The translations under genes were made by a program, and so were the position numbers. A stretch of 64,000 nucleotides of DNA, from the NCBI GenBank assembly GCA_964498805.1, contig CAZCJE010000005.1:25176-89175 (forward strand), read 5' to 3'. The notes beneath the pieces are model-generated. The model was not told where the DNA came from. It was given only the letters and a program-made list of their open reading frames with translations, and made no database searches. This DNA comes from an uncultured Thiothrix sp. (GTDB lineage Bacteria; Pseudomonadota; Gammaproteobacteria; Thiotrichales; Thiotrichaceae). The stretch's first letter is position 1; every line of letters begins with the position of its first letter. This document shows, one piece after another, positions 3,120 through 36,906 of this stretch.

Positions 3120-3836
3120 CTAGTTGCTTCTAGAGGATAAGCCACCAGGCATATATCGGTAGTGCCCCGTGATAGGCATGGTAAACAGAACATCTTCCAG
3201 TTTTTCACCCTCTCCGATATTGTGCACAATCAAATGACGGTTAGGATCAACTGCTGATATGCGGTTTACCACTATACCGATATGCTCCTGATCTCCACCT
3301 AGACTCCATGTGACCAAATCGCCTGGACGATAATCACTTGGGTTATTAGTCACTGGCAGACGAGCCCCATGACGGGTAAAAAATGCTTTTAAGTTATGGA
3401 CCCGACGATGATCAATATTTGGGTCTGGTGCATCCAGTCCCCATTTCGCCAGATGCGGGTACGCATAAAAATTGTTAGCCATGTCTTCATGCACTAGACG
3501 CTGCAGATCTATGCCTAACTTACGGTAAGACCGAATAACCGTATCCGTACAAACCCCTATATTCGCAGGGACATCGCCATTGGGATATCCTATAGGCACA
3601 TAGCGACCATCATAGGTTACGCGATGGCGTAATCTATCCAAGGCGGCATAAGACAAACGATCAGGAACTGCTAAAGTCGTGCGTGCAGTACCGGAACGTT
3701 TCATAGGAGAAGATACGGCTTGCTCAGAAGATTTTTGCGTGGAACAGCCGGTGACCCCCAAAGCCAGAACACCCACAACCAAACCTGCTGACATACTCCA
3801 TTTAGCCATCACTGGCCTATTGAAAACACTACTCAT
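3120..3836 (-). CDS. DUF1287 (YijF-like) family lipoprotein, NlpC/P60-like Cys-His protein
   Basis: VTYDGRYVPIGYPNGDVPANIGVCTDTVIRSYR, DLQRLVHEDM, IDHRRVHNL, PGDLVTW, HIGIV, IVHNIG; lipobox-like VTGC. Start moved to 3836 (AGGAG upstream); the ORF track starts at 3869. Confidence 0.85.
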   Translation of the reverse strand: MSSVFNRPVMAKWSMSAGLVVGVLALGVTGCSTQKSSEQAVSSPMKRSGTARTTLAVPDRLSYAALDRLRHRVTYDGRYVPIGYPNGDVPANIGVCTDTVIRSYRKLGIDLQRLVHEDMANNFYAYPHLAKWGLDAPDPNIDHRRVHNLKAFFTRHGARLPVTNNPSDYRPGDLVTWSLGGDQEHIGIVVNRISAVDPNRHLIVHNIGEGEKLEDVLFTMPITGHYRYMPGGLSSRSN

Positions 3837-3904
3837 TGACCCGCTCCTGTTGCTACAACAGAACATCAATCACACTATTTACCTTTTTAATTAAGGCTTA
3901 TAAT

Positions 3905-3962: not shown

Positions 3963-5210
3963 TTAATAAGTAGGGCAATCAGAGACGAACGGTTGCTTGA
4001 TAATTCCCCAACGATGAGCCAGTGGAGCATGCGGGTCTGATACTAAAGAACCAGCTTCTACATTTTGGCGCAATTCACGTAAAGACATATAGTAGTTAGG
4101 CTGCCCATCATCTACCAATGTCATTTGCACCTGACAGAAATCATTGAGGAATTTCATTTCTTGTGGCGGTGGTTCATCATTAGAGAATACGGCTTTAGCC
4201 CAACGTGCCGGTTGTGAACGTGGATCAAAGCGACCTACACGGTCCAAATGACGGCGAATGGAATCAAAGAACAAGTGTAAGCGTTTGTCGCGACCTGGGG
4301 TTGAGTGATCATTGTATTCTTTAGCGTTCATACAATGACGACCTTCATTGCGAATTTTTTGCAGATACCATAAAGCATCATACACGTACACACTGCGGTC
4401 ATTAGCGTACATACATAAGGCTAATAACAAACGTTGAGTTTTTTCATCCGGGCTTTCTACCCGTTTACCCAATTTTTTGGAAATAACATCAGTAAACGCC
4501 ACATAGTCTAATTGCACACCAGCAGCTACTTGGAACTGTTCTTCACTATAGCCTGGCTGTTGATTAGCAGGCTTCATAACATTTTGAGGTTGCTTGAAAC
4601 GTCTGTAGCCATCACCGAAACGTTTATCTTCTGGTACATAAAATGGGAAAGAAGGGGTACGTAACAAATAACGAGCCTGTTTAGGCGTGGTTGAGGCCAT
4701 AACCTCAGCAATACCAGTGTCGGTTACGTTTACAATCTGATAGGAATGCACACCCGGAGCCACATAAATATCACCCGGCTTAATGTCATTCAGCGCAATC
4801 GGGTAAGTATCATTACGTAAAGACTCACTACTGGTCATATCAGCAACATAATTCATGAACTGACGGACACGTTGTGGAGGTGAAAGGTTATCCCAAGTGG
4901 ACATAGAATTGCTGATAATTTTACCAGCTTTGTCACGATTATTGATAACAAAAGGTAAGCGGTTTTCGAAGGAGAAAACAAGGCGCATGGCATAAACTGC
5001 ATCGGCACAATCGTTTTCAAATTCGTAGTAAATAGGTTTGGAAGGATCCATGAAAATATCATCTTTCCAGTTAGTCCGTACCCAATCGCGGTAGCGTCCT
5101 TCCCAAACATCATCCCAAACATTCTCGTTAGGCCATACTTCTGCTGATGCAGTCATGGGGAGAATCACCATGCTCAACAGAAATAGCACCGAGGCAATCA
5201 ACTTTTTCAT
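3963..5210 (-). CDS. Exported hypothetical protein, putative papain/NlpC-P60-like cysteine hydrolase
   Basis: Sec signal peptide (MKKLIASVLFLLSMVILPMTASA). ENDCADAVY and IKPGDIYVAPGVHSYQIV resemble the Cys and PGD...His elements of NlpC/P60-like folds. The function is inference. Confidence 0.6.
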   Translation of the reverse strand: MKKLIASVLFLLSMVILPMTASAEVWPNENVWDDVWEGRYRDWVRTNWKDDIFMDPSKPIYYEFENDCADAVYAMRLVFSFENRLPFVINNRDKAGKIISNSMSTWDNLSPPQRVRQFMNYVADMTSSESLRNDTYPIALNDIKPGDIYVAPGVHSYQIVNVTDTGIAEVMASTTPKQARYLLRTPSFPFYVPEDKRFGDGYRRFKQPQNVMKPANQQPGYSEEQFQVAAGVQLDYVAFTDVISKKLGKRVESPDEKTQRLLLALCMYANDRSVYVYDALWYLQKIRNEGRHCMNAKEYNDHSTPGRDKRLHLFFDSIRRHLDRVGRFDPRSQPARWAKAVFSNDEPPPQEMKFLNDFCQVQMTLVDDGQPNYYMSLRELRQNVEAGSLVSDPHAPLAHRWGIIKQPFVSDCPTY

Positions 5211-5363: not shown

Positions 5364-5393
5364 AAAAAAAGCCCAGTCATGAATGATCTGGGC
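5364..5393 (-). terminator. Intrinsic terminator of lipoprotein A
   Basis: GCCCAGATCAT-TC-ATGACTGGGC then TTTTTTT on the minus strand. Confidence 0.8.
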
Positions 5394-5458: not shown

Positions 5459-5860
5459 TTATTTCTGCTGATATTGTTGCATTAACTGCTGAGATTTTTT
5501 ATCCATGCTCACAGGACCTTTATATTTGCCTTTGGCTTTGACCTGTGGAACAGCCGGACCTTTACCCTGACCGCCGCCGACATGAGGTACGCCACCTTTG
5601 CAACCATAAGCATGTTTATGGTTAGGATCTTTAGTTGGGTGGGTGTGGGTTACAGAGTTGGTGCAACCAGGAATAGCAGGATGTGAATGAGAGCCAGCGA
5701 CAGCATTAGTGCTAGGCGCTTTAGTATCAGTGGTTTTGGTTTCTGGCGCAGCTGTTTGTTGTTGGCTAGCACCTGCAGTTTGTTGCATTTGCTGACAGCC
5801 TGTTGCCAATAAACCAGCCACCAGCAGAGCTGCCAGTGTGAGTGGGGTTTTGATTTTCAT
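5459..5860 (-). CDS. Small lipoprotein, paralog A (His/Cys-rich linker, conserved VKAKGKYKGPV tail)
   Basis: Lipobox LLATGC after a signal peptide (MKIKTPLTLAALLVAG), Q-rich segment, HSHP...C...HTHP...HKH...C, tail VPQVKAKGKYKGPVSMDKKSQQLMQQYQQK. Start set at 5860 by analogy with the paralogs. Confidence 0.85.
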   Translation of the reverse strand: MKIKTPLTLAALLVAGLLATGCQQMQQTAGASQQQTAAPETKTTDTKAPSTNAVAGSHSHPAIPGCTNSVTHTHPTKDPNHKHAYGCKGGVPHVGGGQGKGPAVPQVKAKGKYKGPVSMDKKSQQLMQQYQQK

Positions 5861-6052
5861 CGTCTTGATCTCTTTCATTTGTTGTTTAAGGGAAGCATTC
5901 ACAAGGGTAGCTAAACAAACGTTTTTGAACGTCTTTTTACAGATCCCCTAATAAACTCAGTTAAGAATATACACAAAAAGCGGATCGATGTAACCAGTAT
6001 TAATCAAGAAGTCAAGATACTTTTATAAAACAAGATTGTTCTTTCTATCCAT

Positions 6053-6086
6053 AAAAAAACCCCTATCTAATTAAGATAAGGGTTTT
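6053..6086 (-). terminator. Intrinsic terminator of lipoprotein B
   Basis: AAAACCCTTATCT...AGATAGGGGTTTTTTT hairpin plus T-run on the minus strand. Confidence 0.75.
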
Positions 6087-6103
6087 GCCATGATCAAATC
6101 AGA

Positions 6104-6445
6104 TTAGCGCTGATATTGCTGCATTACATCTTTAGATGACTGATCAATCTCGACCGGGCCTTTATAGTTGCCTTTGGCTTTAACCGGTGGAATTTTCACT
6201 GGCGGTGGTGGAGGTGGACGTTTAACAGGCGGACGAGCTACTGGTGGTGGCGCAGGTGGCTGTGGAGTAACAGGAGCCGGTACTACAGGCTTAGGCTGTT
6301 CGCAAGGTGGACAAGCTTGCTGTTGAGAAGTTTGTTGACTGCCAGTCACTTGCTGGCTGCCTGCTGACTGTTGTTGACTACAACCTGCTGTGGACAAGCC
6401 GATACATATTAACGTTCCAAGTATCAGTTTGGACTTTAATTCCAT
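6104..6445 (-). CDS. Small lipoprotein, paralog B (Pro-rich linker, conserved tail)
   Basis: Lipobox STAGC, SQQQ segment, CPPC and a poly-Pro linker, tail IPPVKAKGNYKGPVEIDQSSKDVMQQYQR. Start 6445 has GAGG upstream. Confidence 0.85.
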   Translation of the reverse strand: MELKSKLILGTLICIGLSTAGCSQQQSAGSQQVTGSQQTSQQQACPPCEQPKPVVPAPVTPQPPAPPPVARPPVKRPPPPPPVKIPPVKAKGNYKGPVEIDQSSKDVMQQYQR

Positions 6446-6591
6446 GGCATTAGCCTCGTTCATTGTCTTAAAGATTAGGAATATAGTTAAGTGCAGCCAA
6501 AGATTACTCGTCTCTTAGGGCTCACCCCTAAATATTTAGTACAAAATCTTCATAAAAACCGATTAGCGGGCTAGATTCGTTCTACTAGGTC

Positions 6592-6624
6592 AAAAAAAAG
6601 CCCTTAGCATAAGCTTAAGGGCTT
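6592..6624 (-). terminator. Intrinsic terminator of lipoprotein C
   Basis: AAGCCCTTAAG...CTAAGGGCTTTTTTTT on the minus strand. Confidence 0.8.
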
Positions 6625-6668
6625 GTTTGATTAATAAGCCCTCATTCAAAAGGGCTTGTCAATCAGAA

Positions 6669-6965
6669 TTAGCGCTGATAACGCTGCAGAGTTGCTTTGG
6701 AAGCTGGGTCCATAGTAACTGGGCCTTTGTATTTACCTTTGGCTTTAACCTGAGGTACTTGAGGCGCTGGTGCTACTGGACGACGTGGAGCTGGAGCTGG
6801 AGCAACTGGAGCTGGAGCAACTGGAGCTGGATTAGCAGCTGGAGTTTCAGCTACTTGCTGACCAGTAGTCTGCTGGCTACCAGCAGCTTGTTGTTGGCTA
6901 CAACCAGTGGCCAGCAAACCTGCCAGCAACAAGCTGGCTACAGCGAATTGAGATTTCATTTTCAT
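6669..6965 (-). CDS. Small lipoprotein, paralog C (Pro/Ala linker, conserved tail)
   Basis: Lipobox LLATGC, SQQQAAGSQQ, PAPVAPAPVAPAPAP, tail VPQVKAKGKYKGPVTMDPASKATLQRYQR. Confidence 0.87.
   Translation of the reverse strand: MKMKSQFAVASLLLAGLLATGCSQQQAAGSQQTTGQQVAETPAANPAPVAPAPVAPAPAPRRPVAPAPQVPQVKAKGKYKGPVTMDPASKATLQRYQR
6786..6830. repeat. Coding tandem repeat, 15-nt unit TGGAGCTGGAGCAAC (about 2.6 copies plus 6-nt subunits)
   Basis: Read directly at 6792-6806, 6807-6821 and partially 6822-6830; encodes the VAPAP repeats of lipoprotein C. Confidence 0.85.
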
Positions 6966-17933: not shown

Positions 17934-18887
17934 TTATTCCTGATAGCCGAGATATGTGCGCGGGTCTTGTTGTTCACCGTTTTTAAGCACTTCCAAATGC
18001 AAATGAGGGCCCGTCGAACGGCCTGTATTGCCCATTAACGCTACCAAATCGCCTTTTTTCACCACTTGTCCTTCCTTGACTTTAGGGACGCTCAAGTGAC
18101 CATAACGGCTGACTAAACCATCACCATGATCGACTTCTACGGCAATACCATAGCCCGACTTTTCACCGGCATACGATACTACGCCACCAGCTACTGCATA
18201 AATTTCCGTACCAATAGGACCGGCAAAATCCAATCCCTTATGCATTTTTAAATGACCATTAAAAGGGTCATGCCGAATACCAAATTCGGAAGAAATATAA
18301 CCACTTTTAACCGGACGAGCGGAAGGAACTATTTCCTCTTGTAAAGTCAGACCTTCAAGAATTTGCTCCAAAGTGGCCAGCATACCTTTTTGACGGTCAA
18401 CATCATTTTCAGCCCGCTGGAAGGCTGTAAGTAGTTCATCAGAGGGATTTTTAGGCTGCCCGGTGACCGCTTCGGCTAGCCCCCCACGGGCAGGCTTACT
18501 ATCCAGTGAAAACTCTTGTGGGTCTAGCTTAGCTTTATTGGCGACACGTTTAGCCAAGGCATTCAAACGGGTGATTTCTGCTTCCATCGTTCCTAGACGC
18601 GTCGACAGGGTATCAACATCTACGGTATAGTTGGCGTAGGTTTTTTTGATCTGGTCGACGGTGGTAATTTGTCGTTCCAAAGCGGTAAGAATTTTACTGG
18701 CTTCTTGCTGAGACAAGGCAGTGGTTTGTGGTGTGCGATCCAGACGATATAAACCCAGCATCTGGTTAACAGATAACCCCACCAATAGTAATGCCACCAA
18801 TCCAGCAGGAATAATCAGATGTTTCCATGGATGCAAGTTAAATGAAGCACGGCGCGAACCATCATCACTAAGACAAATTACCTTCAT
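17934..18887 (-). CDS. M23 family metallopeptidase with N-terminal coiled coil
   Basis: HKGLDF, YGHL, STGPHLHLEV zinc motifs; usual position upstream of secA. Confidence 0.92.
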   Translation of the reverse strand: MKVICLSDDGSRRASFNLHPWKHLIIPAGLVALLLVGLSVNQMLGLYRLDRTPQTTALSQQEASKILTALERQITTVDQIKKTYANYTVDVDTLSTRLGTMEAEITRLNALAKRVANKAKLDPQEFSLDSKPARGGLAEAVTGQPKNPSDELLTAFQRAENDVDRQKGMLATLEQILEGLTLQEEIVPSARPVKSGYISSEFGIRHDPFNGHLKMHKGLDFAGPIGTEIYAVAGGVVSYAGEKSGYGIAVEVDHGDGLVSRYGHLSVPKVKEGQVVKKGDLVALMGNTGRSTGPHLHLEVLKNGEQQDPRTYLGYQE

Positions 18888-18976
18888 AGGTGTTAATCCT
18901 TGAGCTTCCTTACTAGCGTAAAAAACAAATCCATACTGATAATAGTTGTTCTAGAACCAGTGGAGGCAGAAAAACC

Positions 18977-19402
18977 ATGAAAAAAATGAATGTTTTCATT
19001 AAGCCAGATATTCTTGAAAGGCTGGAGCAACTGGATAAATTAACTGTATTGGTGAATCAATTTTTTCCAATCTCAATAGAAAACAGGCTTTGGCCTGTCT
19101 TAAAGAATCATCGCTTGACACTTTTGACAGATGATCCTTATCTGGCTACACAAGCTCGCTTTCAACAAAACACACTCTGTAAATATTTAAGCAAAAACTT
19201 GAACACTCCTATTCGCGGCATGGATATTAAAGTGATTAGTTTACCGCTGGCAAGCTTTGAGCAAAAAAAGGACAGTTTTAAACTATCAGCGAATGCTGCC
19301 AATATTGTCGGCAGCATTGCCCAAAGTATTCATGATGATGAATTAAGAGAAACCGTTTTACGTCTTTCTAAAATTGCCGGGCCTTCCAACCAAGGCTATT
19401 AA
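18977..19402 (+). CDS. DUF721 / DciA-like protein
   Basis: Size and opposite-strand position between lpxC and the M23 gene; [18 protein letters not shown] resembles the family; sequence divergent. Confidence 0.6.
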
Positions 19403-20316
19403 ATCCCGCCAAATGCATAATTATCAATGAAAATTACCTGATCTTTTTGTTTTTCTTCCAGGCTTACCATTTCCCATGCATCACGCTGTTTTAAAAGCTC
19501 ACGTACCAATAAATTATTAATCGCATGCCCTGCTTTATAACCATAGAAAGCCCCAATAATACCGTGACCTAATGTATATAAATCACCGACTGCATCTAAA
19601 ATTTTATGACGTATAAATTCATCGGTATAACGTAAGCCATCAGGATTTAAAACCCGATATTCATCCAAGACAATAGCGTTTTCCAAACTACCGCCTAAGC
19701 CCAGATTACGTGACCGCATCATTTCCACATCACGCATAAAACCAAAGGTACGGGCACGTGCAATTTCACTTGCATAAGCTTGCCGTGAAAAATCAATTTC
19801 CAGTTTTTGTTTAGTCGCATTAACCGCTGGATGATTGAAATCAATTTCAAAGGTGGCTTTGAAACCTTCATAAGGCGATAAACGTGCCCAGCCATCACCT
19901 TTTTTAGCTTCAATAGTACGTTTGATACGGATAAAACGTTTAGGTGCTCTCAGTTCTTCAATACCTGTTGATAACAGCAAATACAGGAATGGTGCTGAAC
20001 TACCATCCATAATGGGAATTTCTGCTGCATCAAGGTCTACATACAAATTATCAATACCCAGACCTGCTAATGCAGACAATAAATGTTCGACCGTTGCAAC
20101 TTTCATCTCTCCCTCAACCAACGCTGTGCATAGCATGGTTTCTCCCACTCGCTCAGGGTGCAGTTCCAGTAGGGATGGAGGATTCATATCAACACGACGA
20201 AAGACAATGCCAGTATTAGCCGGAGCAGGACGCAAAGTCATAGAGACCTTTTTACCCGAATGCAGGCCAATGCCTACAGTAGAAACTGTTTTTTTCAGTG
20301 TACGTTGCCTTAACAA
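19399..20316 (-). CDS. lpxC: UDP-3-O-acyl-N-acetylglucosamine deacetylase
   Basis: [40 protein letters not shown]. Confidence 0.98.
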
Positions 20317-20542
20317 GGTATGCTCCCTTTTTGTGGCTGTGTTATTTTTATAGAATACTCAGATTCTAGATCATTCTTTTTAAATCTGAATAACTGTAGC
20401 CCAAAAACGAAAAATCACCCGACTGTTAACTGACAAACAGCTATACAGGTGATGCCCCATTATTGTTTTCCCCTGTGGTCAAAGCAAAAAGTCTTTAACC
20501 ACATGATGGGTTTTTCATTTAACTTGCCTTAGGCAATAAACT

Positions 20543-21757
20543 CTAGTCCGCCTGTTTGCGCAAAAACGCTGGAATATCCAGATTACCGTCAGCACCGCTG
20601 CGACTGTAAGCTGGAATATCCAATACATTATTGGCATAACGGTTACTACCACCAGCGGGAACCTTTGGCGTTTGCTCAAGCTGTACAGGCTGTAACTGGC
20701 GTACACGTTCACGCTCACGCGCAGCTTTAGAAGGTTGAGGTGGAGGCGGTGGTTCTACAGCTTTCAAGGCTGGACGTGCGCCACCCATACCAAGTTCTTC
20801 CAGACCCGTTGCAACCAAAGTAACACGGATTTCATCACGCATATCCGGGTCAATAACCGTACCGACTACTACGGTCGCTTCATTGGAAGCAAACTGACGA
20901 ATGACCTCACCGACTTCTTCAAACTCATGGATACCCATATCCAGACCGGCGGTAATATTAACCAGAATACCTTTGGCACCGTCCAGACAAATATCTTCCA
21001 GCAATGGACTGGAAATGGCTGCCTGTGCGGCTTTAGCGGCGCGGTCTTCACCTTGCGCTCGGCCTGTGCCCATCATGGCTACACCCATATCAGACATAAC
21101 CGTACGCACGTCAGCAAAGTCCACATTGATCAGACCTTGACGGGTAATCAATTCAGCAATACCTTGTACTGCATTTAATAAGACATTGTTAGCTGCCTTG
21201 AACGCATCCAGTAACGATACATTTTTACCCAATGAAGTCAGTAGTTTCTGGTTGGGAATGGTAATCAGAGAGTCGACATGCTTACTTAACTCATTGATAC
21301 CATTATCAGCAGCCAGCATACGTTTAGGCCCTTCAAACGGGAAAGGCTTAGTCACGACAGCAACCGTCAAAATGCCCATATCGCGGGCAATTTCTGCCAC
21401 TACTGGAGCTGCACCCGTACCCGTACCACCACCCATACCGGCTGTGATGAATAGCATGTCAGTACCACTGACTAATTCTTTAATACGTTCACGGTCTTCC
21501 AAAGCAGCTTCCCGGCCAATTTCAGGGTTAGCACCTGCTCCGAGGCCTTTTGTCAGTGAGCTACCGAGTTGCAGAATGGTTTTAACTCCCTTAACTCCTA
21601 GGCCTTGCAGGGCCTGAGCATCTGTATTGGCACAGATATACTCAACCCCCTCAATACCAGACTCCAGCATATTCTTGACTGCATTACCACCGCCACCACC
21701 TACACCGATGACTTTTATTACAGCGCCTTTGGCTGCACTGTCCATTAATTCAAACAT
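20543..21757 (-). CDS. ftsZ: Cell division protein FtsZ
   Basis: [29 protein letters not shown], terminal [12 protein letters not shown]. Start MFELMD at 21757 with GGAG upstream. Confidence 0.99.
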
Positions 21758-21774
21758 GCCCGTCTCTCCAACTG

Positions 21775-23022
21775 TCAAAAATTACCGTTAAACCAAGATT
21801 TCAGGCGTTCCCACCACCCTTCAGGCACCACACTCTGGGAAGTAGTATAATAAGTACGCCTAGTCCCGTAAGCTTGCTGTGCAAGTCCGTACATCAACAA
21901 GCCTACTCCAGTAGAATGGATCGGGTTTTCAACCTCTCCACGCATACCCCCCATATTGCGGGGCATACCGATACGAACCGGCATGTGGAAAACTTCTTCG
22001 GCCAACTCGCGAACTCCACGCATTTTCGAAGAGCCGCCCGTCAGTACAATACCTGCACCAATTCTTTCCTCATAGCCACTACGCCGCAGCTCTTCTAGAA
22101 CCAGTAAAAATAGTTCCTCATAGCGTGGTTCAATCACTGATGCTAGCGTCTGTGCCGATAGACTGCGTGGTTCACGCTCGCCTACTCCAGGCACTTCGAT
22201 CAATTCATCTTCATCAATCAGTTGGCGCAATGCTCGGCCATACTTGATTTTGATTTCTTCCGCGCTTTGAGTCGGTGTCCTGACTGCGACTGCTATATCA
22301 TTAGTAACCTGATCACCCGCAATGGGAATCACTGCGGTGTGATGAATGGAACCATTGATGAAAATGGCAATATCACTGGTGCCACCACCAATATCAACCA
22401 GACAGACACCCAGTTCTTTTTCATCTTCTTCCAAAACAGCATAGCTTGACGCTACTTGTTCCAGAATAATATCTTCAACATGCAAACCACAACGTTCCAC
22501 ACATTTAACCAGGTTCTGGGCAGCACTGTGAGCCGCGGTTACCAAGTGAACCCTAGCCTCTAAACGAACCCCGGACATGCCGATAGGCTCGCGGATACCT
22601 TCTTGCTGGTCAATCACGTATTCTTGGGGTAATACGTGTAGAATGCGTTGGTCGGCAGGAATAGCCACTGCGCGTGCAGCATCCATTACTCGTTCGACAT
22701 CACCTTCGGTGACTTCCTTATCTTTTATGGCAACAATACCATGAGAATTCAAACTGCGAACATGGCTTCCTGCAATTCCCACATATACTGTACGTATTTG
22801 TGTGCCTGCCATCAATTCGGCTTCTTCAACGGCACGCTGAATAGACTGGATAGTTGACTCAATATTGACTACCACACCCTTTTTCATGCCGCGGGAGGGA
22901 TAAGAGCCAAGGCCAATGATTTCCAGACGTCCGTTATCGGTCACTTCACCTACCAAAGCCACTACTTTGGAAGTTCCCAGATCCAGCGCAACAATCACAT
23001 TATGCTCTATTTTCTTTGACAT
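21775..23022 (-). CDS. ftsA: Cell division protein FtsA
   Basis: [25 protein letters not shown]-terminal amphipathic WWERLKSWF. Confidence 0.98.
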
Positions 23023-23023
23023 C

Positions 23024-23839
23024 TTAACTCCTGCGGCTCATGCTTATCATCTCCAAGGAGCTAACCGGCGCTTGCTTCCATTCGATAGCAAAACCATTGG
23101 TGTAACGCAGATCAATTCGGCGAATTTTCCCCAACTGATTAGCCAGTTCCTTCTGGAATCCCACCTTGAACCGCTGTATGCGACGCTCCTGATCATCATT
23201 TCCTACCAAGACTTCGGGGCCATCCTTGATCTTGATTCTCCAGGTGCCACTTTCATCCTCAGTCAATTCTGCTATTTCCAATGGCATGCCTTTTAACCAC
23301 TGACGTACTTGCAGATAACGTTCACCCATTTCCCTGCCTTTATCTTCAGGACTATACAATAAAGGCAAGATACCTCGCATGGATGGCAAATTAGCTGCAA
23401 ACAATTCGCCATACTGATTCATAAGGCGATCACTTCCCCAAAATGCTACCGGGCGTTGTTCTTCGACATTCACAATTAACTGGTCAGGCCACGCTTTACG
23501 CAGACTCACCGCACGTACCCACGGCTGGAGTTCTAATTCAGTCTCCAGGGCATCTACATTCAGCAGATACAGGTTGGTCTGGGTATATTTATCAATGATA
23601 TTACGTAATTCTATATCTTTGATATATTCTAATTTACCTTGAATATCAATCTGACTGATGGGCATGTTTTCTGGATTATTTAGCACAGCGCGTGTACCTA
23701 GACTGGCACCTATTATCACCAATAATGAGGCTAGCAAGGTCGCCAGTCTTATCATAGCCGGTGACAAAACGGGCACCTGAAAGCCCAGAGGCTCGGAGCG
23801 TCTGGGCTTAGCAGGTACACGTCGCTGTGCGGTAGCCAT
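23024..23839 (-). CDS. ftsQ: Cell division protein FtsQ
   Basis: Single TM, POTRA (LQPWVRAVSLRKAWPDQL), IDLRYTNGFAIEW. Confidence 0.95.
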   Translation of the reverse strand: MATAQRRVPAKPRRSEPLGFQVPVLSPAMIRLATLLASLLVIIGASLGTRAVLNNPENMPISQIDIQGKLEYIKDIELRNIIDKYTQTNLYLLNVDALETELELQPWVRAVSLRKAWPDQLIVNVEEQRPVAFWGSDRLMNQYGELFAANLPSMRGILPLLYSPEDKGREMGERYLQVRQWLKGMPLEIAELTEDESGTWRIKIKDGPEVLVGNDDQERRIQRFKVGFQKELANQLGKIRRIDLRYTNGFAIEWKQAPVSSLEMISMSRRS

Positions 23840-24750
23840 TATAACGTTGTCTCCAGAATACGTACTACTAGCGCCTGAAAGTCTATACCAACGGCTTTTG
23901 CTGCCATTGGCACCAAACTATGATCCGTCATGCCGGGGTTGGTATTGACCTCAATCAACCAAACTTTGCCCTGATGGTCGCGCATCATATCCACACGCCC
24001 CCAACCACGCCCACCAACCGCAGCAAACGCTTGGCGTGCTAATACCTGCATGGCTTGCTCTTCTTCAGCCGTCAAACCACAGGGACAGTGATAACGGGTA
24101 TCATCAGAGATATACTTGGCTTCGTAATCGTACAACTCACCGGGGACTTCAATGCGAATCAGGGGCAAAGACTCGCCTGCAACCATGCCAGCGGTGTATT
24201 CACCTCCGACAATCCATTGTTCGGCAATGACGGTCGGGCTACAGCTAGCGGCTTTGGCATAGGCTTCAGGCAAATCTTCAGCCTTTTTCACTTTGCTTAG
24301 ACCAATACTAGAACCTTCAGTTGCAGGCTTGATAATTAATGGCAATCCTAATTCATCGACAATTGCCGCAAAATCGGTTTCTGCGGTTAAAACCCGATAA
24401 GCAGGTGTCGGCAAGCCTGCACCTATCCAGACTCGCTTGGTCATGAGTTTATTCATGCTGATAGCCGATGCCATCACACCACAACCTGTATAAGGCAGAC
24501 CGAGAATTTCTAAGGCACCTTGCAATACACCATCTTCACCCCCGGCACCATGCAGAATATTGAAGATACGGTCAAATTGACCTTGTTGCAGGGTTTGCAG
24601 GATATAACGATCCACATCAATACCATGCGCATCAACACCACTGGCTTGTAACGCTTGTAAAACGGCCTGACCGCTTTTTAAAGATACAGGCCTTTCCGCC
24701 GACCAGCCCCCGTACAATACTGCGACCTTGCCGAAACGATTCATTGTCAT
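23839..24750 (-). CDS. ddl: D-alanine--D-alanine ligase
   Basis: [44 protein letters not shown]. Confidence 0.97.
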
Positions 24751-26180
24751 GCGCTTGCTTCCCCCTTGATTGCTAAAGCTTCTGGCAGGCTTGCTGCTAG
24801 TGCGCCCACACTACCAGCCCCTTGAGTCAGGATAACATCGCCATCTTGTAAGATATGTTTTAGTACACCTGGCACATCTTCTACGTCAGTGACGAAAATT
24901 GGGTCAACTTTGCCGCGAATTCGGATAGCCCGAGCTAATGTTCTACCATCTGCCCCGGGAATTGGTTTTTCACTGGCTGCATAAACATCCAGCAATACCA
25001 GCACATCGGTTTCAGACAATACCTGTGTAAAATCTTCAAACAGGTCACGGGTACGACTATAACGATGAGGCTGGAAAATCAGCACCAAACGCCGTTCAGG
25101 CCATGCATTACGCACTGCTTTAAGGGTAGCCAACATTTCACGCGGATGATGACCATAATCATCCACCAATGAAGCTATACCCTTGCCAAAGTCAATATCG
25201 CCATACATCTGGAAGCGACGGCCGACGCCATCGAATTTTTTTAGCCCTACAAGTATAGCGGCATCGGATACATCCAGCTCCTTGGCAATGGCAATAGCAG
25301 CCAATGCATTCAGTACGTTATGCCGCCCTGGTAAATTCAATACCACTTCTAGCCGACAATCGGTACGTGTGCATTCGACTGTAAAAAACGTTTGGGTACC
25401 GACAAAACGTACATTAGTGGCACGTACATCCGCGTCGCAATCAATCCCATAAGTAATCGATGGCCGATTGACCTCAGGTAAGATTTCACGCACGTGTTCA
25501 TCATCCACACACAACACCGCTAAACCATAAAACGGCAAATGATGCAGAAACTCCACAAACGTCTGTTTTAGCTTGGCAAAGTCGCCCCCATAGGTATCCA
25601 TATGGTCGGCATCGATATTGGTCACCACGGCGATCATAGGCTGTAAAAACAGGAAAGATGCATCACTCTCGTCCGCTTCTGCCACTAGATACTCACCAGT
25701 ACCCAGTTTGGAGTTGCTGGCCGAGCTATTCAATTTGCCGCCAATCACATAGGTAGGATCCAAGCCGCCTTCCACCAACAAACTGGTGGTTAAACTAGTG
25801 GTAGTGGTTTTACCGTGGGTACCAGCAACCGCAATACCGTGACGAAAGCGCATTAATTCAGCCAACATTTCAGCGCGGCGTACAATGGGGATGCGTTGCT
25901 CACGCGCAAGAATTATTTCCGGATTGGTATTATCAATGGCGGTTGAAACCACCACCACATCCGCGCCTTCGACATGTTCTGCCGCATGGCCTTTGAATAC
26001 TTTAACCCCAAGGGATTGCAAACGCCGCGTCATGGTATTTTCGGCCAGGTCCGAACCGGACACTGAATAGCCCAGATTGGCAACCACTTCCGCAATACCG
26101 CCCATACCAGCACCCCCAATACCAATAAAGTGCAGGCGGTTAATACGTTTGCGTGCCAGTTGGTCACTCCCTATCTTCAT
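24747..26180 (-). CDS. murC: UDP-N-acetylmuramate--L-alanine ligase
   Basis: [42 protein letters not shown]. Confidence 0.98.
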
Positions 26181-27304
26181 TATTGCTTTCCTGTCTTATT
26201 TTGAAATTCATAGCCAGCATAAGCTGCACAAATGGCAGCGACTTGAGCGGTAGCATAAGGTTTGGCTAATTGTCGGGCAGCCACACTCATTTGCCGTAAT
26301 TTTTCTCGATTACCTAGTAAGTCATCCAACAAACTCGCCAGCTTTTCCGGCGTAAGATCAGACTGCTGGATTAATAAAGCAGCCCCATTCTCTGCCAGAT
26401 AATTGCCATTAGCAGTTTGGTGGTCATCTACCGCATACGGGAATGGCACCAAAATCGCCGCCACCCCAGCGGCTGCCAGTTCTGCCACTGTCAAAGCACC
26501 AGAACGGCAAATCACTAAATCTGCCCACGCATAAGCTTCAGCCATATCTTCAATAAAAGGCATAACCTCGGCTTCAACCCCGGTATTAGCATAGTGCTGA
26601 CGCGCATCCTCAAGGTGTTTAACCCCTGCCTGATGACGTACCATAGGACGCTTATCAGGTATCAGTTGTGCCAACGCTTGCGGTACCATCTGATTCAAGG
26701 CCTGCGCACCCAAACTGCCACCGATTACTAAAACATGCACAGGCTCATCATCACGATCCGCTAACCGTTCCAGCGGATTAGGCAAACTGGCTATATCCAC
26801 CCGTACCGGGTTGCCAGTGGCCATGACTTTTTGGCTAGCGGGGAAAGTGCCGGGAAAGCCTTCCAAAATACGCCGACTCACCCGACTCAGCAGTTTGTTA
26901 GTCAGCCCGGCTACGGCATTTTGTTCATGAATGACTACCGGTTTGCCCATTAAGGCAGCGACAAAACCACCGGGCCCTGCCACAAACCCGCCCATCCCCA
27001 GTACTGCGGCCGGTTGGTAGGTACGCATAATGCCAATAGACTGCATTAGCGCTTTGACGAGATTAATAGGGGCCATTAGTAAAGTTTTCCAGCCCTTACC
27101 ACGCACACCATTCACGTCTAGCCACGCCATTTCAATGCCCGCCTCAGGAATCACTCGCGCTTCCAGTCCTTTGCGAGTACCCATCCACACCACAGGAATA
27201 TTTTGTGCCATCAAAGCACGCGCTACTGCTAATCCGGGGTAGACATGCCCACCGGTACCGCCTGCGGTAATCAGAATGGGACGTTGTTTTGTATTATTTG
27301 TCAC
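26180..27304 (-). CDS. murG: Lipid II GlcNAc transferase
   Basis: [42 protein letters not shown]. Confidence 0.98.
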
Positions 27305-28559
27305 GGGTCGTTTTCCTTACTGTTTGGGCTTTGCGGACGGTGACTCGAGCCGTCGCTAACTTGTTTTTATCACTAGTCCCGCTATTGGGAATACGTGTTT
27401 CCCGATAGACCCGCATGACCAATGCGATTGCCATCAGGGTAATCATCAAACTACTACCCCCGTAACTAATCAGAGGTAATGTCAAGCCTTTAGGCGGTAG
27501 CAGCGCAAGATTGACCCCAATATGCATGATCACCTGCAACCCAACCCAAAAACCAACCCCATAGGCGACATAAGCACCAAAATGCTGGCCATTTTTATCC
27601 GCATGAAAGCCAATGATGAAAGCTCGGCGCACCAACCAGCCGAATAACACCAATACCACTACCATACCGACAAAACCGAATTCCTCAGCTAATACTGAAA
27701 AAATAAAGTCATTATGGGCTTCAGGTAGATAAAGTAGCTTTTGCATACCACCACCTAGACCAGCACCAAACCAGCCACCATCACCAATCGCCATTTGGGC
27801 ATTGACGGTTTGGTAACCTACAAAGCTGCCATCGTCACCAATCGCCCAAGGGTCCCAATACGCCAATAAACGCCTACCACGATAGCCAATAAAAGCTAAA
27901 GGCGTCAGGATTATAGCTGCCCCACCCAATAATATTCCTAAACGTTTCAGGGGAACGCCGCCCAAAAACAACAAGGCCATACCGGTAATGCATATCACCA
28001 TGGTGGAACCAAAGTCAGGCTCCAACATTAACAAAAACCCAGTCATACCCATGACGAGCAAGGGAATGGCTAAAGGCTTGTAAGAGGGTGAAGTCGCCAG
28101 ATGTTTGCCATGGCGAATTAAATAGCCCGACAAATAAAGCAGCATGATCAACTTGGAAATTTCCGAAATCTGTAACCGCGTGAAACCGATATTTAACCAA
28201 CGACGGCTACCATTTACTTCCACACCAATGCCCGGAATCAACACCAAAATTAATAACACCCAGATAATGGGTAACAGTTTGACGCCTAGGTTTTGCCAGA
28301 AATCAATGCGAATTTGATAGATGATAAAAGAAAATAACAGGCCAAGTCCCAAAAAAATAAACTGGCGCTGCAAATAATAATAGGGATTTTGATATTCTTT
28401 CTCGGCCACCCAGAAAGAGGCCGAGGCTAACATGACAATGCCGATACCCAGCAATGCCATTAAGGTAATGACTAATTCATAATCAATGTAATGACGCCAC
28501 GTTTTAGGCTCAACCGTTTTTGCACTAGTCGTCACCATCTGCGCAGCGTTTGAAATCAT
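27294..28559 (-). CDS. ftsW: Peptidoglycan polymerase FtsW (SEDS)
   Basis: GSRRW, EPDFG, YLPEAHNDFIF, LPLISYGGSSL. Confidence 0.97.
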   Translation of the reverse strand: MISNAAQMVTTSAKTVEPKTWRHYIDYELVITLMALLGIGIVMLASASFWVAEKEYQNPYYYLQRQFIFLGLGLLFSFIIYQIRIDFWQNLGVKLLPIIWVLLILVLIPGIGVEVNGSRRWLNIGFTRLQISEISKLIMLLYLSGYLIRHGKHLATSPSYKPLAIPLLVMGMTGFLLMLEPDFGSTMVICITGMALLFLGGVPLKRLGILLGGAAIILTPLAFIGYRGRRLLAYWDPWAIGDDGSFVGYQTVNAQMAIGDGGWFGAGLGGGMQKLLYLPEAHNDFIFSVLAEEFGFVGMVVVLVLFGWLVRRAFIIGFHADKNGQHFGAYVAYGVGFWVGLQVIMHIGVNLALLPPKGLTLPLISYGGSSLMITLMAIALVMRVYRETRIPNSGTSDKNKLATARVTVRKAQTVRKTTRDK

Positions 28560-29905
28560 GGTAGGCCTCTTACAGCATCACTAAAGACATCACCACGATG
28601 GGCATAGCCTTTAAACATGTCAAAACTCGCACAAGCAGGCGACAGCAATACATTATCACCCGCACGGGCGAGTTCAGCCGCAACTTGTACCGCTTCGGTC
28701 ATATCACGCGCCATTACATAGGGTGCAACCCCTTCGATCACAGCCGCAATTTTGTGGCGATCTTCGCCAATTAACACCAAAGCACGCGCTTTTTCAGCTG
28801 CTACCGCACGTAAAGGGGCGAAATCCGCGCCTTTACCTTGACCACCGGCAATCAAGACGGTTTTACCCGGCAAGCCAGCCAAAGCAGCTAAAGTGGCACC
28901 AACATTAGTGCCTTTGGAATCGTTGTACCAGTTCACACCAGAACGTTCCCGCACCCACTGCGTACGATGTGGCAAGCCGGTAAATTCGCGTAATGCCGCC
29001 AGCATTCCTTCCATAGGAATACCCGCTGCTTCGCCTAAAGCAAGCGCTGCCAAGGCATTGGCAATATTGTGTTCACCGGGCAATTTCATTTCATCGACGG
29101 CCAGCAATAGTTCATCGCCTTTTGCCAACCAACGTTTGCCAGCGCGCGCGCATACGCCATACTGCCCTGCAGGTGGATTATCCAGCCCAAAGCTGACACT
29201 ATCCTGGTAATCAACCACTTGCAGCATATCCATCACCAGCGCATCCTGACGATTCACCACTGCACACTGACAGTTTTGGTAAATCACCTGTTTAGCAGCA
29301 GCATAATCCGCATAGCTGTCATAGCGGTCCATATGATCTTCACTGACATTCAGCACCACGGCAGCAACAGCTTGCAAAGATTGGGTGGTTTCCAACTGGA
29401 AACTGGACAGTTCCATCACATAGACATCCGGGACGGGCTGCTCGAGCATATCCAATGCCGCATAACCCAAATTACCCCCAGCATAAGACGTCCAACCGGC
29501 TTTGCGTGCCATCAAATCCACCAAAGTGGTCACACTGCTTTTGCCATTGGAGCCAGTAATCGCGATTACCGGCGCTTTGGCAGCACGCACAAACAACTCG
29601 ACATCACCCATAATGTGCGCCCCACGTTCAGCCGCTGCCCGAATCTGCGGGGTTGCCACCGCAATACCGGGGCTTACGACCAAAGTCTGTGCCTGCGCAA
29701 ACCAATCTTCAGCCTTGGCAAAAGCGCCAAACGCATAAGGAACCTGTGGGAAACGGCTGACCAGTTCGTCTTTTCCGGGTGGATTTTCACGGCTATCCAC
29801 CACGGCAAAGGCAATACCTTGGGCCTGCAAATAACGGGCAATGGATAAACCGGTTTGACCCAAACCCACTACCAAGGTATCCCAGTTGTTGTGCTGTGCT
29901 GTCAT
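28556..29905 (-). CDS. murD: UDP-N-acetylmuramoyl-L-alanine--D-glutamate ligase
   Basis: GLGQTG, TGSNGKSSVT, ELSSFQL, DHMDRY, NDSKGTN, LSPACASFD. Confidence 0.98.
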   Translation of the reverse strand: MTAQHNNWDTLVVGLGQTGLSIARYLQAQGIAFAVVDSRENPPGKDELVSRFPQVPYAFGAFAKAEDWFAQAQTLVVSPGIAVATPQIRAAAERGAHIMGDVELFVRAAKAPVIAITGSNGKSSVTTLVDLMARKAGWTSYAGGNLGYAALDMLEQPVPDVYVMELSSFQLETTQSLQAVAAVVLNVSEDHMDRYDSYADYAAAKQVIYQNCQCAVVNRQDALVMDMLQVVDYQDSVSFGLDNPPAGQYGVCARAGKRWLAKGDELLLAVDEMKLPGEHNIANALAALALGEAAGIPMEGMLAALREFTGLPHRTQWVRERSGVNWYNDSKGTNVGATLAALAGLPGKTVLIAGGQGKGADFAPLRAVAAEKARALVLIGEDRHKIAAVIEGVAPYVMARDMTEAVQVAAELARAGDNVLLSPACASFDMFKGYAHRGDVFSDAVRGLP

Positions 29906-29918
29906 GCTGTCCTGTTCC

Positions 29919-30998
29919 TTAGCGAATTTTCAAAGTAGCCAAACCGATCATGACCAGAATAACGGTAATGATCCAGAAACGAACAATAACGCGCGGCTCC
30001 GGCCAGCCTTTTTTCTCATAGTGGTGATGCAAGGGTGCCATGCGGAAAATGCGTTTACCGCCAGTCGCCTTGAAATACCCCACCTGCATAATCACCGACA
30101 ACGTTTCCAACACAAACACGCCACCCATAATAGCCAGCACGATTTCCTGACGTACCACTACCGCGACAATACCCAAAGCGGCACCGAGAGCTAATGCACC
30201 AACATCCCCCATAAAGACTTGAGCGGGATAGGTGTTAAACCACAAGAAGCCTAAACCTGCGCCAAAAATAGCCGCACAGAACACCATCACTTCACCCGCC
30301 CCCGGAATGCGTGGAATCCCCAAATACTGGGAAATAGTGGCATGACCACTCACATAGGCAAAAATAGCCAGGCCACCGGCAACCATAATGGTTGGCATAA
30401 TCGCTAAGCCATCTAAACCATCGGTCAGATTCACCGCATTACTCGAACCAACAATGACCAAATAAACCCACGGGATAAAGAACCAACCCATTTGCCAATG
30501 TACATCTTTTAAGAACGGCACAAATAAGGTGGTTTCAGTTGGTGTATTGGTAAAGAACAGATAAAACGCGGCGACAAAACCAATTACCGTCAAACCAGCG
30601 TATTTTTGCTTGGCGGTTAAACCCAGATTACGGCGTTTTTTCAGCTTGATGTAATCATCCAGACCACCTACCAAACCAAAACCAAGCGTGACACCGAGTA
30701 CTACCCACACATAACGATTACGCAAATCCGCCCATAACAACGTGGAAACGGCAATCGCTAGAATAATCATGACCCCGCCCATCGTCGGCGTGCCCGCTTT
30801 CATTTGGTGTTGGGGGCCATCTTCTCGAATATATTGACCGATTTTTAAACGGGTTAAGGCCCGAATCATGCTCGGCCCTGTCCACAAGGCAATAAATAGC
30901 GCCGTTAGTAATCCCAAAATCGCCCGTAAGGTCAAATACTGGAATACATTGAAGCCGCGATAAAATTCACCCAAAAATTCAAACAACCATAACAACAT
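29919..30998 (-). CDS. mraY: Phospho-N-acetylmuramoyl-pentapeptide transferase
   Basis: [36 protein letters not shown]. Confidence 0.98.
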
Positions 30999-32344
30999 TA
31001 TGCAGCCTCCTTGGCAGTACTAACCGTTAATGCCTCTACTACCCGTTCCATACGGGAAGAACGTGATCCTTTTACCAATACATTGGTGTCTGGCTGCAAA
31101 TCCTGTTGCAGTGCCACCAGCAAGGCATCCAGCTCCTGAAAGGCTTTGCCACCTTGGCCAAACTGCTGACTGGCACTAGCACTCAACTGACCTAATGTAT
31201 AAAAGCCGTCAATACCTGCTTGTGCGGCCTTTTCACCGATAAAAGCATGCAGTTCCCTGCCTGTTTCACCCAATTCACCCATATCGCCCAATACCATTAT
31301 TTTTTTACCATTTAATTCTGCCAAAACCTCAACAGCAGCAGCCGTTGATGTCGGATTGGCGTTATACGTATCATCAATCACCATACCACCGTGCTTACCA
31401 ACACGTGGACACAAACGCCCTTTGACAGGCTGCAGGGATTCCAACCCTTGAGCAACACTCGACAATGGAACACCCAAAGCCAACGCTGCTGCGGTTGCAG
31501 CTAGTGCATTGCGCTGGTTATGCCGCCCGAGCAGCTTTAGATTAATGACCTGTGTCTGCCCATACGCGGTCACACAGAACTGATTAGCTGCATTCATAGA
31601 GCCTTGTACATCCGCTGTCTGTGCAAGACCAAAACTCAATAGCCGACGCTCTGTATTTAGGCTACGCCAATAATCAGCATAGGTATCATCGGCATTAATA
31701 ACCGCGACACCTTCATCAGTAAGCCCCGCAAAAATTTCACCTTTAGCACGTGCAACCCCTGCAATATCTCCAAACCCTTCCAAATGCGCCGCACCAGCAT
31801 TATTTAAAACAGCAACGTTTGGGCGGGCAATAGCCGTTAGATACGCAATTTCACCAAAATGGTTCGCCCCCATTTCAATGACAGCAAATTTATGTTCCGG
31901 ACGTAACCGCAACAAAGTCAATGGCATACCCAGGTCATTGTTTAGATTGCCCAATGTAGCCAATGTTGACCCGTGCAAGGACAAAATAGCGGTAAGCATT
32001 TCTTTCAGCGTGGTTTTACCATTGCTGCCGGTCAAACCAATCACAGGACAGGTAAACTGCTGACGCCATGCTGCTGCTAAACGTCCTAATGCCAGTCGTA
32101 CATCATCAACAACTACTTGAGCAATCGGCGCATCCAACAACCGGGTTACCAGGACGGCACTGGCTTTCCCTGCAACTTGTGGCACAAACTCATGCGCGTC
32201 AAAACGTTCACCTTTCAGGGCCAAAAACAAATCGCCGCTTTGCACGAGTCTGGAATCACGCTCTACCCGTTCAATAGCAATATCCTCGCCATGCAAGCTA
32301 CCATTGGTCATACGGGCAATATCAGAAAGCCTTAACCAACTCAT
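30998..32344 (-). CDS. murF: UDP-MurNAc-tripeptide--D-Ala-D-Ala ligase
   Basis: [43 protein letters not shown]. Confidence 0.97.
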
Positions 32345-35702: not shown

Positions 35703-35971
35703 TCGCGAATTACCTTAATATTGTCAGCGGACGGTTTTTGCATTTTCAACTCCTGTTTGGCTTTCGTTTCCACCCATACCTGATTCAGGCGGGCACTTTG
35801 TTCAAGTTTTAAACGACTCCAGTCGGCGCTGCGCTCATCTCGTTCTTTTTCTAACTCTTGGATTTCAGCAAACAGCTGCCGAGCATAATGGCGGTTATTC
35901 ACAACCAATAAGGCCAGACCAATGACCAGTGTATACAAAGCCAGCAGCGACAATAACTGCAAGCGATTCAC
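35699..35971 (-). CDS. ftsL: Cell division protein FtsL
   Basis: TM plus coiled coil, WSRLKLEQS; position between rsmH and ftsI. Confidence 0.9.
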   Translation of the reverse strand: MNRLQLLSLLALYTLVIGLALLVVNNRHYARQLFAEIQELEKERDERSADWSRLKLEQSARLNQVWVETKAKQELKMQKPSADNIKVIRE

Positions 35972-36906
35972 GTCACACGCTCCGCGATACGCATAATGGC
36001 ACTGCGTGCGCGTACATTCACCGCTACCTCCTCTTCACTAGGCCTAATAGCCTTGCCGACCAAACGTATGGCAGGCTGCTGATCCGTAGGCATAATCGGT
36101 AAACCTTTAGGTAAGCGCGGTGGGGTAGAAACTTCGCGGAGGAAATGTTTGACTATCCGGTCTTCCAGCGAATGGAAACTGATCACGACTAAACGACCAC
36201 CCGGAGCCAGCAATTCCACTGCTTGCCGCAAACACGCTTCAACATCGTCCAGCTCTTGATTGACTTTGATGCGGATAGCTTGAAAACTGCGTGTTGCCGG
36301 ATGTTTACCCGGTTCACGTTTGCGGATAACAGAGCTAATTAGCTCAGCCAGTTGCAGAGTAGTGGTTAAAGGATTAAGCAGGCGGGTTTCGACAATTTTG
36401 CGGGCAATCTGCCTAGAAAAGCGTTCTTCACCAAAACGCCATAGCACATCCGCAATATCAGTTTCGCTAGCGTGAGACAACCATTGCGCAGCACTTTCGC
36501 CGCGTGAAGCGTCCATACGCATATCCAGTGGACCCTCGCGCATGAAACTGAAACCGCGTTCGGCATCATCTAGCTGTGGGGAAGAAACCCCTAGATCAAG
36601 CAATAAACCGTCGATTTTGCCAGCAATACCGGCTGCTTGCAGCGCCTGTGGAAACTCTCGACAGGAACCGTGCCAAGCAAATACTCGGGGGTCAGCCGCT
36701 TGCAGCTGACGAGCATGATGGATGGCTACGGTGTCCTTATCCATGACAACCAGCCGCCCATTCTGGTCCAATTGCTGTAAAATACATCTGGAATGACCGC
36801 CACGACCATAGGTTCCATCGATGTAAACCCCCGATGCTTTGATATCCAAAGCTGCTACTGCTTCATGCAGCAGTACTGTTTCGTGTTTCCACACACTGTC
36901 CGCCAT
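35968..36906 (-). CDS. rsmH: 16S rRNA m4C1402 methyltransferase
   Basis: HETVLL, DGTYGRGGHS, DLGVSSPQLD, PLDMRMD, SFHSLEDRIVK. Confidence 0.98.
   Translation of the reverse strand: MADSVWKHETVLLHEAVAALDIKASGVYIDGTYGRGGHSRCILQQLDQNGRLVVMDKDTVAIHHARQLQAADPRVFAWHGSCREFPQALQAAGIAGKIDGLLLDLGVSSPQLDDAERGFSFMREGPLDMRMDASRGESAAQWLSHASETDIADVLWRFGEERFSRQIARKIVETRLLNPLTTTLQLAELISSVIRKREPGKHPATRSFQAIRIKVNQELDDVEACLRQAVELLAPGGRLVVISFHSLEDRIVKHFLREVSTPPRLPKGLPIMPTDQQPAIRLVGKAIRPSEEEVAVNVRARSAIMRIAERVT

Follow-up and report, generated by a model that had tools for sequence, protein, structure and literature searches.

Predicted tandem lipoproteins of Thiothrix and its relatives carry a C-terminal tail that profile comparison relates to the PG_binding_1 domain

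How the outer membrane is joined to the wall outside the enterics is still under study, and reports of new tethers go back only a few years. Reports of Lpp, a trimeric alpha-helical coiled coil, are limited to Aeromonadales, Alteromonadales, Enterobacterales and Vibrionales (bioRxiv 10.1101/2021.05.31.446380), and the Lpp-box, which also occurs in OutB, requires a C-terminal Lys that is linked to meso-diaminopimelate (meso-DAP) (PMC12274547). Pal and other OmpA-family lipoproteins of the outer membrane bind peptidoglycan non-covalently through a C-terminal module. LpoA and LpoB, the activators of penicillin-binding protein (PBP) 1A and PBP1B, join an outer-membrane lipid anchor to a long disordered linker and a small C-terminal element that reaches the wall or the enzyme, and NlpI is a tetratricopeptide repeat (TPR) lipoprotein coupled to the papain-fold wall hydrolase MepS. 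PG_binding_1 (PF01471) is an enzyme accessory domain of 57 residues, represented by the SleB N-terminal domain (6tci, 4fet), SltB3 (5ao8) and the binding domains of the phage endolysins KZ144 and EL188, for which the motif D-G-(hydrophobic)2-G-K/N-G/N-T has been proposed as the peptidoglycan-binding signature (PMC3352856). In the present study, a window of 64,000 nucleotides from an uncultured Thiothrix sp. (assembly GCA_964498805.1, contig CAZCJE010000005.1, positions 25,176 to 89,175) was analyzed, in which three tandem genes, here called A, B and C, encode small predicted lipoproteins with a shared C-terminal tail. Profile comparisons indicated that this tail, in which a previous reading of the DNA from its letters alone (the sequence-only reading) had recognized no known domain, is a diverged and truncated relative of PG_binding_1 and not a new domain.

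All three genes lie on the minus strand. Gene C (6669..6965) encodes a 98-aa lipoprotein with a signal peptide, the lipobox Cys22, the sequence SQQQAAGSQQ, a PA-repeat spacer and the tail (aa 70-98, 6672..6758, VPQVKAKGKYKGPVTMDPASKATLQRYQR). Gene B (6104..6445) encodes a 113-aa lipoprotein in which the lipobox Cys22 is followed by a Gln-rich stretch, CPPC (aa 45-48, 6302-6313), a poly-Pro spacer and the tail (aa 85-113, 6107..6193, IPPVKAKGNYKGPVEIDQSSKDVMQQYQR), and gene A (5459..5860) encodes a 133-aa lipoprotein with the lipobox Cys22, a Gln-rich stretch, one His/Cys module (aa 56-89, 5594..5695, GSHSHPAIPGCTNSVTHTHPTKDPNHKHAYGCKG), a Gly-rich stretch and the tail (aa 104-133, 5462..5551, VPQVKAKGKYKGPVSMDKKSQQLMQQYQQK). 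The start codons were chosen as the homologues support, and an alternative in-frame upstream start (MKEIKT-) is possible for gene A. The N-terminus of each protein consists of a basic n-region, a hydrophobic core and the lipobox (LLATGC in A and C, LSTAGC in B), followed by the Gln-rich stretch; as read from the sequence, all three satisfy the lipoprotein pattern [LIVMFWSTAG]2-[LIVMFYSTAGCQ]-[AGS]-C within the first ~35 residues, and the lipobox Cys is residue 22 in nearly all full-length members among the 77 family proteins tabulated. The arrangement that the sequence-only reading had described, with a lipobox, a Gln-rich start, a variable middle and a near-identical tail in three genes, was thus borne out in full. 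Its statement that the linkers differ completely also held, the middle parts being unrelated: a His/Cys block and then Gly in A, CPPC and then poly-Pro in B, and Pro-Ala repeats in C. No further copies of the tail genes were found within the window.

The tails of the window genes are 29-30 aa long (26-30 residues for the tail generally) and have the consensus VPxVKAKGxYKGPVx(M/I)Dxx(S)xxx(M/L)Q(Q/R)YQ(R/QK), of which K5, K7, G8 and G12 are invariant in 35 diverse tails. The tail stands at the extreme C-terminus, the protein ending 20-27 residues after the start of KAKG. Identity to the C tail is 62-69% at the protein level. Since the DNA of the tails is only 64-74% identical and each pair shows 5-11 synonymous codon differences, the three tails are old copies under purifying selection, and the same data ruled out recent duplication or gene conversion as the source of their likeness. 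Spurious open reading frames in low-complexity DNA were likewise ruled out by conservation in ~40 genomes.

The kinship of the tail was traced through a set of sister lipoproteins, comprising four matches of the gene C search and several of the gene A search, which have the same lipobox, Gln-rich stretch and His/Cys modules as A but a different C-terminus, ...VDVYALQRKLKAKGYYKGPIDGVVGPGTRSALKRFMNR. In the sisters P0028, P0030, P0031 and P0032 and in the protein of locus L048, PF01471 was matched at 27.7-37.8 bits (gathering cut-off, 23 bits) over profile positions 4-37 of 57. Moreover, the profile of the sister C-terminus matched solved peptidoglycan-binding domains, namely SleB 6tci (2e-8), SltB3 5ao8 and the L,D-transpeptidase 4lpq. 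When the profile of the 35 diverse tails was compared with the sister C-termini by hhalign, 96.9% (E 2e-10) was obtained over 28 columns, which is the whole tail, and full-length MAFFT alignments placed both tail types in register within proteins sharing the lipobox, Gln-rich stretch and His/Cys modules. Additionally, the library-wide tail-profile search picked up the unrelated protein P0109 (E 8.7e-4), which consists of four classical PG_binding_1 domains (PF01471, E 1.2e-67); hhalign of the tail profile with these four repeats gave 95.5% (E 1.5e-8) over repeat positions 7-36. Column-shuffled tail profiles reached at most 16.8 and 21.7, compared with 34.4 and 40.8 for the real profile. In the AF2 (AlphaFold2) model of gene A, a helix was predicted at residues 121-131, where helix 2 of the domain falls, with a mean predicted local distance difference test (pLDDT) score of 74 over residues 111-120 and 82 over residues 121-130. 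By these comparisons, the tail is homologous to about positions 7-36 of the 57-residue PG_binding_1, a stretch that takes in the last part of helix 1, the loop and helix 2.

The gene neighborhood points in the same direction. Gene A adjoins p415 (3963..5210, minus strand), which encodes a 415-aa secreted protein with 256 homologues at 57-100% identity and is therefore far better conserved than the lipoproteins. A p415 gene was found less than 4 kb from the lipoprotein genes in 33 of the 34 lipoprotein loci, the exception being a truncated contig, and in Thiolinea-type loci it lies between lipoprotein copies. The outgroup p415 homologues (57-61% identity) occupy sites between atpC and glmU-glmS, or between metG and lptD-surA; the sites next to glmU-glmS or lptD-surA (L048-L052) are envelope-biogenesis neighborhoods. 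Five outgroup loci were examined, and in each of them the gene or the two genes directly before p415 encode His/Cys lipoproteins of the PG_binding_1 type. Lipoproteins of the PG_binding_1 type and of the tail type are thus counterparts in position, both sitting beside p415, and this equivalence supports descent of the tail from a truncated domain. Furthermore, since the linkage is kept across three genomic contexts, the lipoprotein and p415 are inherited as a pair.

Several observations weigh against this kinship or against the function that may be read from it. None of the 35 isolated tails matched PF01471 or any other Pfam family at E <= 10, and full-length A, B and C matched neither PF01471 nor any other Pfam or NCBIfam model. 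The tail amounts to about half a domain, for which a three-helix bundle is impossible, and the AF2 model shows a single helix. The DG(hydrophobic)2G..T motif is replaced in the tails by (M/I)D..S with a deletion of 2-5 residues; at this site the sequence of the window tails is V-[STE]-[MI]-D-x-x-S, with 2 residues missing where DG would stand, whereas the sister C-termini retain DGVVGPGT or NGVVTPET. The PG_binding_1 copies of the sisters are themselves without helix 3. The P0109 comparison is not fully independent, because P0109 was chosen as a match of the tail profile. The best-conserved element, KAKGxYKGP, was found in the tail type and in the PG_binding_1-type sisters but not in generic PG_binding_1, and this family-specific element may serve another partner. 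In addition, the model of the gene A protein has a mean pLDDT of only 57, and lipidation, outer-membrane sorting, expression and wall binding are predictions. Because of the Pfam miss, the half domain and the lost signature, the tail is regarded as a relative of PG_binding_1 and not as a member by the criteria of that family.

Other matches were considered and rejected. Pfam and NCBIfam scans of A, B and C gave nothing above threshold, and the sub-threshold matches (sialomucin, PRIMA1, LpoB, VlpA and others) were dismissed as compositional and low-complexity. Against solved structures, the sole match of the tail profile was KGIVRMDKASR in designed double-psi beta-barrel proteins (tail residues 11-22; PDB 7du7, 7dvf and 7dvc), which was judged to be due to chance, with a whole-sequence E of 0.005 and two 12-residue stretches each of E ~11.

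The distribution of the family is narrow. Homologue searches returned 32 proteins for the gene C query and 49 for the gene A query, and the named sources were Thiothrix or Thiolinea. The sequence-only reading had proposed a tail-profile search for distribution and copy number; the HMMER search of 1.84 billion representative proteins gave 44 matches at E <= 0.001, nearly all of them 90-270 aa long and ending in the tail, and there are 1-4 tail genes per locus. When a single genome from each of 185,579 species was scanned with the tail pattern, 43 loci were found, all in Thiothrix, Thiolinea, Thiofilum, metagenome-assembled genomes (MAGs) of Thiotrichaceae or gammaproteobacterial MAGs with the same cluster. 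As judged from these searches, the lipoprotein family does not extend beyond Thiothrix, Thiolinea, Thiofilum and related MAGs. The three types can be told apart in other species by their N-termini (MKMKSQ... in C-like, MELKSKL... in B-like, and MKIKSQL... with a His/Cys block in A-like proteins). In Ca. Thiothrix moscowensis, the order is that of the window (ffh, C, B, A, a 411-aa protein, DUF1287, rpsP-rimM-trmD-rplS), and in T. nivea C and A stand at the same site; the C-type orthologues of both species adjoin ffh. The middle parts are thus not the interchangeable linkers that had been proposed, because three old paralogue lineages keep their gene order next to ffh and the His/Cys part of A is itself conserved as a module. 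Several Thiothrix genomes have a second, unlinked locus, at which the same KAKG tail ends a protein with a Sec signal peptide without a lipobox, a Cys-containing N-domain (VVKNSxGECVxAxYGFxPEGCE; L020-L027 and L041, for example L023 3617-4090) and a PA spacer. Since it also sits on this Sec-secreted protein, which is not a lipoprotein, the tail behaves as an autonomous module.

Public records name the members, where at all, as "hypothetical protein" or with automated labels (LpoB, Lpp, transposase-like protein). A literature search on Thiothrix lipoproteins and peptidoglycan returned nothing relevant, and no paper on the family was found. The family is without a Pfam or NCBIfam model, while the logic of an anchor, a spacer and a module of wall-binding type is known; new in it are a tail of half a domain, the occurrence as tandem paralogues, the His6Cys2 module and the linked p415. 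One further record with the tail, P0085 (93 aa), joins the N-terminus of ribosomal protein L7/L12 to an Ala/Pro stretch and the KAKG tail and is probably an assembly or gene-calling chimera.

Comparison with the described systems shows what is shared and what is not. With PG_binding_1, to whose positions ~7-36 the whole tail aligns, the tail shares the hydrophobic positions (V/L, Y, V/I, M/L, Y/F) and a G-x-Y-x-G turn; unlike that domain, it has a Pro-rich sequence in place of helix 1, no helix 3, a shorter loop and no intact signature, and it is an appendage of a tiny lipoprotein instead of an enzyme accessory domain. Like Lpp and the OutB Lpp-box, A, B and C are small, separately transcribed lipoproteins whose C-terminus is basic and which could plausibly connect the outer membrane to the wall. 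Unlike Lpp, they have no LPP (PF04728) match, their spacers are Pro/Ala/Gln-rich, the AF2 model of A is largely unstructured and their C-terminal Lys is not conserved. LpoA and LpoB are alike in layout, but no homology to LpoB was found: TIGR02722 reached only 11.8 bits (E 0.18; cut-off 110.55) over the low-complexity linker, the globular LpoB domain is lacking and the linked gene is p415 and not a PBP, although automated names from the Joint Genome Institute (JGI) label some members LpoB. The resemblance to Pal and OmpA-family lipoproteins is one of anchor and C-terminal module; there is no OmpA-like (PF00691) match, and the proteins of the present family are much smaller and occur as tandem paralogues. 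NlpI-MepS, lastly, is a model for a lipoprotein that acts as an adaptor of a wall hydrolase, but NlpI has no sequence relation to A, B or C, and the enzyme nature of p415 is tentative.

The account that we favor, tentatively and at somewhat less than an even chance, is that the lipoproteins act as outer-membrane tethers or adaptors that bind peptidoglycan non-covalently. The destination of the proteins would be the outer membrane's inner leaflet, the flexible spacer would span to the peptidoglycan layer, and the tail would dock there without a covalent bond, on peptidoglycan and/or on p415, the co-inherited enzyme; they would hence be outer-membrane-to-wall tethers or adaptors in a lineage outside the four Lpp orders, with the A-type additionally carrying a probably metal-binding His6Cys2 module. 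As Lpp has been reported only from four other orders, a different tether in Thiotrichales would be unsurprising. After the predicted lipidated Cys, 179 of 189 sequences continue with SQ or QQ, and Asp never stands there; the absence of Asp at +2 may be an indirect cue for outer-membrane sorting, although the E. coli rule may not apply in this lineage. The layout that the sequence-only reading had given the proteins, of a membrane anchor, a spacer and a basic binding tail, is supported by the present data, with a spacer that is probably disordered and a C-terminal module that is conserved, as is the likely link to peptidoglycan that it had drawn. The family is well defined and lineage-specific, and its function is read from sequence throughout. 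It represents a compact candidate tether, in which a spacer of variable length joins a lipid anchor to the ~27 residues that remain of a peptidoglycan-binding domain, and it raises the questions of whether half a PG_binding_1 can bind the wall, what p415 does and what the ligand of the His6Cys2 module is. Thiothrix causes bulking of wastewater sludge, for which envelope proteins specific to this group could be markers or targets.

The spacers were examined with respect to the idea that they are stiff rulers. C-type proteins vary from 82 to 107 aa between species, and because spacer length differs between species within one type, a flexible tether or spacer fits better than a calibrated ruler. 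The gene C spacer contains a perfect 15-nt tandem repeat (6791..6831, minus strand; 2.7 copies) that encodes APVAP repeats and is a plausible source of the interspecies variation in length. The B and C spacers are probably disordered, judging from their Pro/Ala/Gln-rich composition, and the AF2 model of the gene A protein is largely unstructured and of too low confidence for a fold search. In B-type orthologues, the Gln-rich stretch is mostly followed by a Cys pair (CxxC or CxC), with a few proteins lacking any.

The leading alternative, possible but rather unlikely, is that the lipoproteins are adaptors or regulators of an enzyme. The tail, chiefly through KAKGxYKGP, would dock p415 and perhaps also the DUF1287 protein encoded at 3120..3869 (minus strand), the usual downstream neighbor in the Thiothrix group and a member of an NlpC/P60-like papain-fold family, and from their place in the outer membrane the lipoproteins would recruit an enzyme that modifies the wall, position it or control it, much as NlpI serves MepS or LpoA/LpoB serve PBP1A/1B, with wall binding secondary or lost. 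The occurrence of lipoprotein and p415 together in three genomic contexts, the flanking of p415 by lipoprotein copies in Thiolinea-type loci, the retention of KAKGxYKGP in both types of C-terminus but not in generic PG_binding_1, and the loss of the signature motif from the tails would all suit such an adaptor, as would the classification of DUF1287 and DUF4846 among the NlpC/P60-like papain-fold families (PMC10318531). Linkage of genes, however, is no evidence of contact, and the papain fold of p415 rests on a DUF4846 match of 22-24 bits, below the cut-off of 37, and on a pattern of residues. The invariant residues, D66-C67 at the N-terminus of a helix, G145-D146, H154 at the start of a strand and E168 on the next strand, fit the papain/NlpC-P60 pattern in an AF2 model of good quality (pLDDT 86; predicted template modeling score, pTM, 0.81), and four additional Cys besides Cys67 are invariant. 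Foldseek of this model against the PDB returned nothing significant (best E 2.7), a PDB sequence search gave 11S globulin alone (E 0.0017), and hhalign with the DUF1287 neighbor showed no relation (0.2%); because these three comparisons gave no support, the papain/NlpC-P60-like assignment stays tentative. Moreover, two to four lipoproteins per p415, together with the unlinked Sec-type tail protein, are more in keeping with a module for general wall docking than with a one-to-one partner.

The His/Cys module was also considered as the primary function. It comprises 34 aa with the pattern H-x-H-x(3-6)-C-x(5)-H-x-H-x(6)-H-x-H-x-Y-x-C, or more finely H-x-H-P-x-x-P-x-C-T-x-S-x-x-H-x-H-x6-H-x-H-x-Y-x-C, and none of its six His, two Cys and single Tyr varies over 36 full-length proteins and 29 non-redundant modules. 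Lipoproteins that carry it have 1-3 copies, the family paralogues holding 0, 1, 2 or 3. The three HxH pairs and the two Cys suggest that the module may bind metal, with or without a disulfide. It is conceivable, but improbable, that metal handling is the primary role at least of the A-type or ancestral proteins, in which His6Cys2 would be a periplasmic binding site for Cu, Zn or Ni and the tail would do no more than park the protein at the wall; the B and C types would then be degenerate derivatives. The invariance of the His and Cys residues at fixed spacing in 29 diverse modules, the presence of the module in every outgroup protein examined and the lipoprotein P0074, which has two modules and no tail, are consistent with this idea. 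However, B and C lack the module and yet are conserved along with the tail; the module matched nothing in Pfam, NCBIfam, the PDB or the literature, and thus no known metal-binding family or structure; the two Cys could merely form a disulfide; and AF2 gave a small hairpin at a pLDDT of only 59-67. Separately, some Thiolinea-type paralogues (P0087, P0088, P0090, P0092 and P0098; L040 2549-3421) contain a repeated Cys module, C-W-H-G-(R/I/V)-N-A-(K/Q/R)-G-(Q/E)-C-(N/L/K)-P, in 1-3 copies.

A Braun-like covalent tether, in which one of the invariant internal lysines of VKAKG would be cross-linked to stem peptides by an L,D-transpeptidase or by the neighboring Cys-His enzyme, is very improbable. 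The invariance of K5 and K7, the putative Cys-His enzyme p415 beside the lipoprotein genes, the documented wall attachment of proteins other than Lpp (PMC12274547) and the position of Thiotrichales outside the four Lpp orders of the published survey can be brought forward for it. On the other hand, electrostatic binding to anionic peptidoglycan predicts invariant lysines equally, no YkuD (L,D-transpeptidase) match turned up among the neighbors of the cluster, where the scan took in 10 genes of the first 14 kb, and the idea of p415 as a transpeptidase is without support. In particular, the last residue over 193 family tails is K in 35%, Q in 32%, R in 16%, Y in 9% and N in 5%, so that the C-terminal Lys that defines the Lpp-box is found in a minority; in the window, A ends in K, whereas B and C end in R. 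The likeness to the YRK end of Braun lipoprotein that the sequence-only reading had drawn is not upheld by these figures. Least probable of all, and hardly to be expected, is that the lipoproteins and p415 form an unrecognized envelope system in which p415 would couple an invariant internal KAKG lysine to peptidoglycan, or otherwise process the tail, while His6Cys2 would add metal or redox control.

Each of the three genes is followed on the minus strand by an intrinsic terminator, in agreement with the separate terminators noted previously: a hairpin with 8 U after gene C (6590..6624, z = -6.0) and hairpins with a U-run after gene B (6053..6086, z = -5.1) and gene A (5364..5393, z = -3.8), the z-scores being computed against dinucleotide shuffles. 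A second hairpin lies near gene C (6628-6665). A plasmid search using the locus, made with a mobile-element reading in mind, gave no match. In the Pfam scan, the regions at 17934-37361 and 44869-57389 of the window contained secA, an M23 peptidase and the division and cell-wall cluster, with ftsZ, a Mur ligase and an FtsI-type PBP, as well as a chain-length protein of the Wzz/GNVR type and a fused ATP-sulfurylase/adenylyl-sulfate (APS) kinase. A large RTX/DUF4214 protein is encoded at 60802-63930, and the surroundings represent an ordinary chromosomal context.

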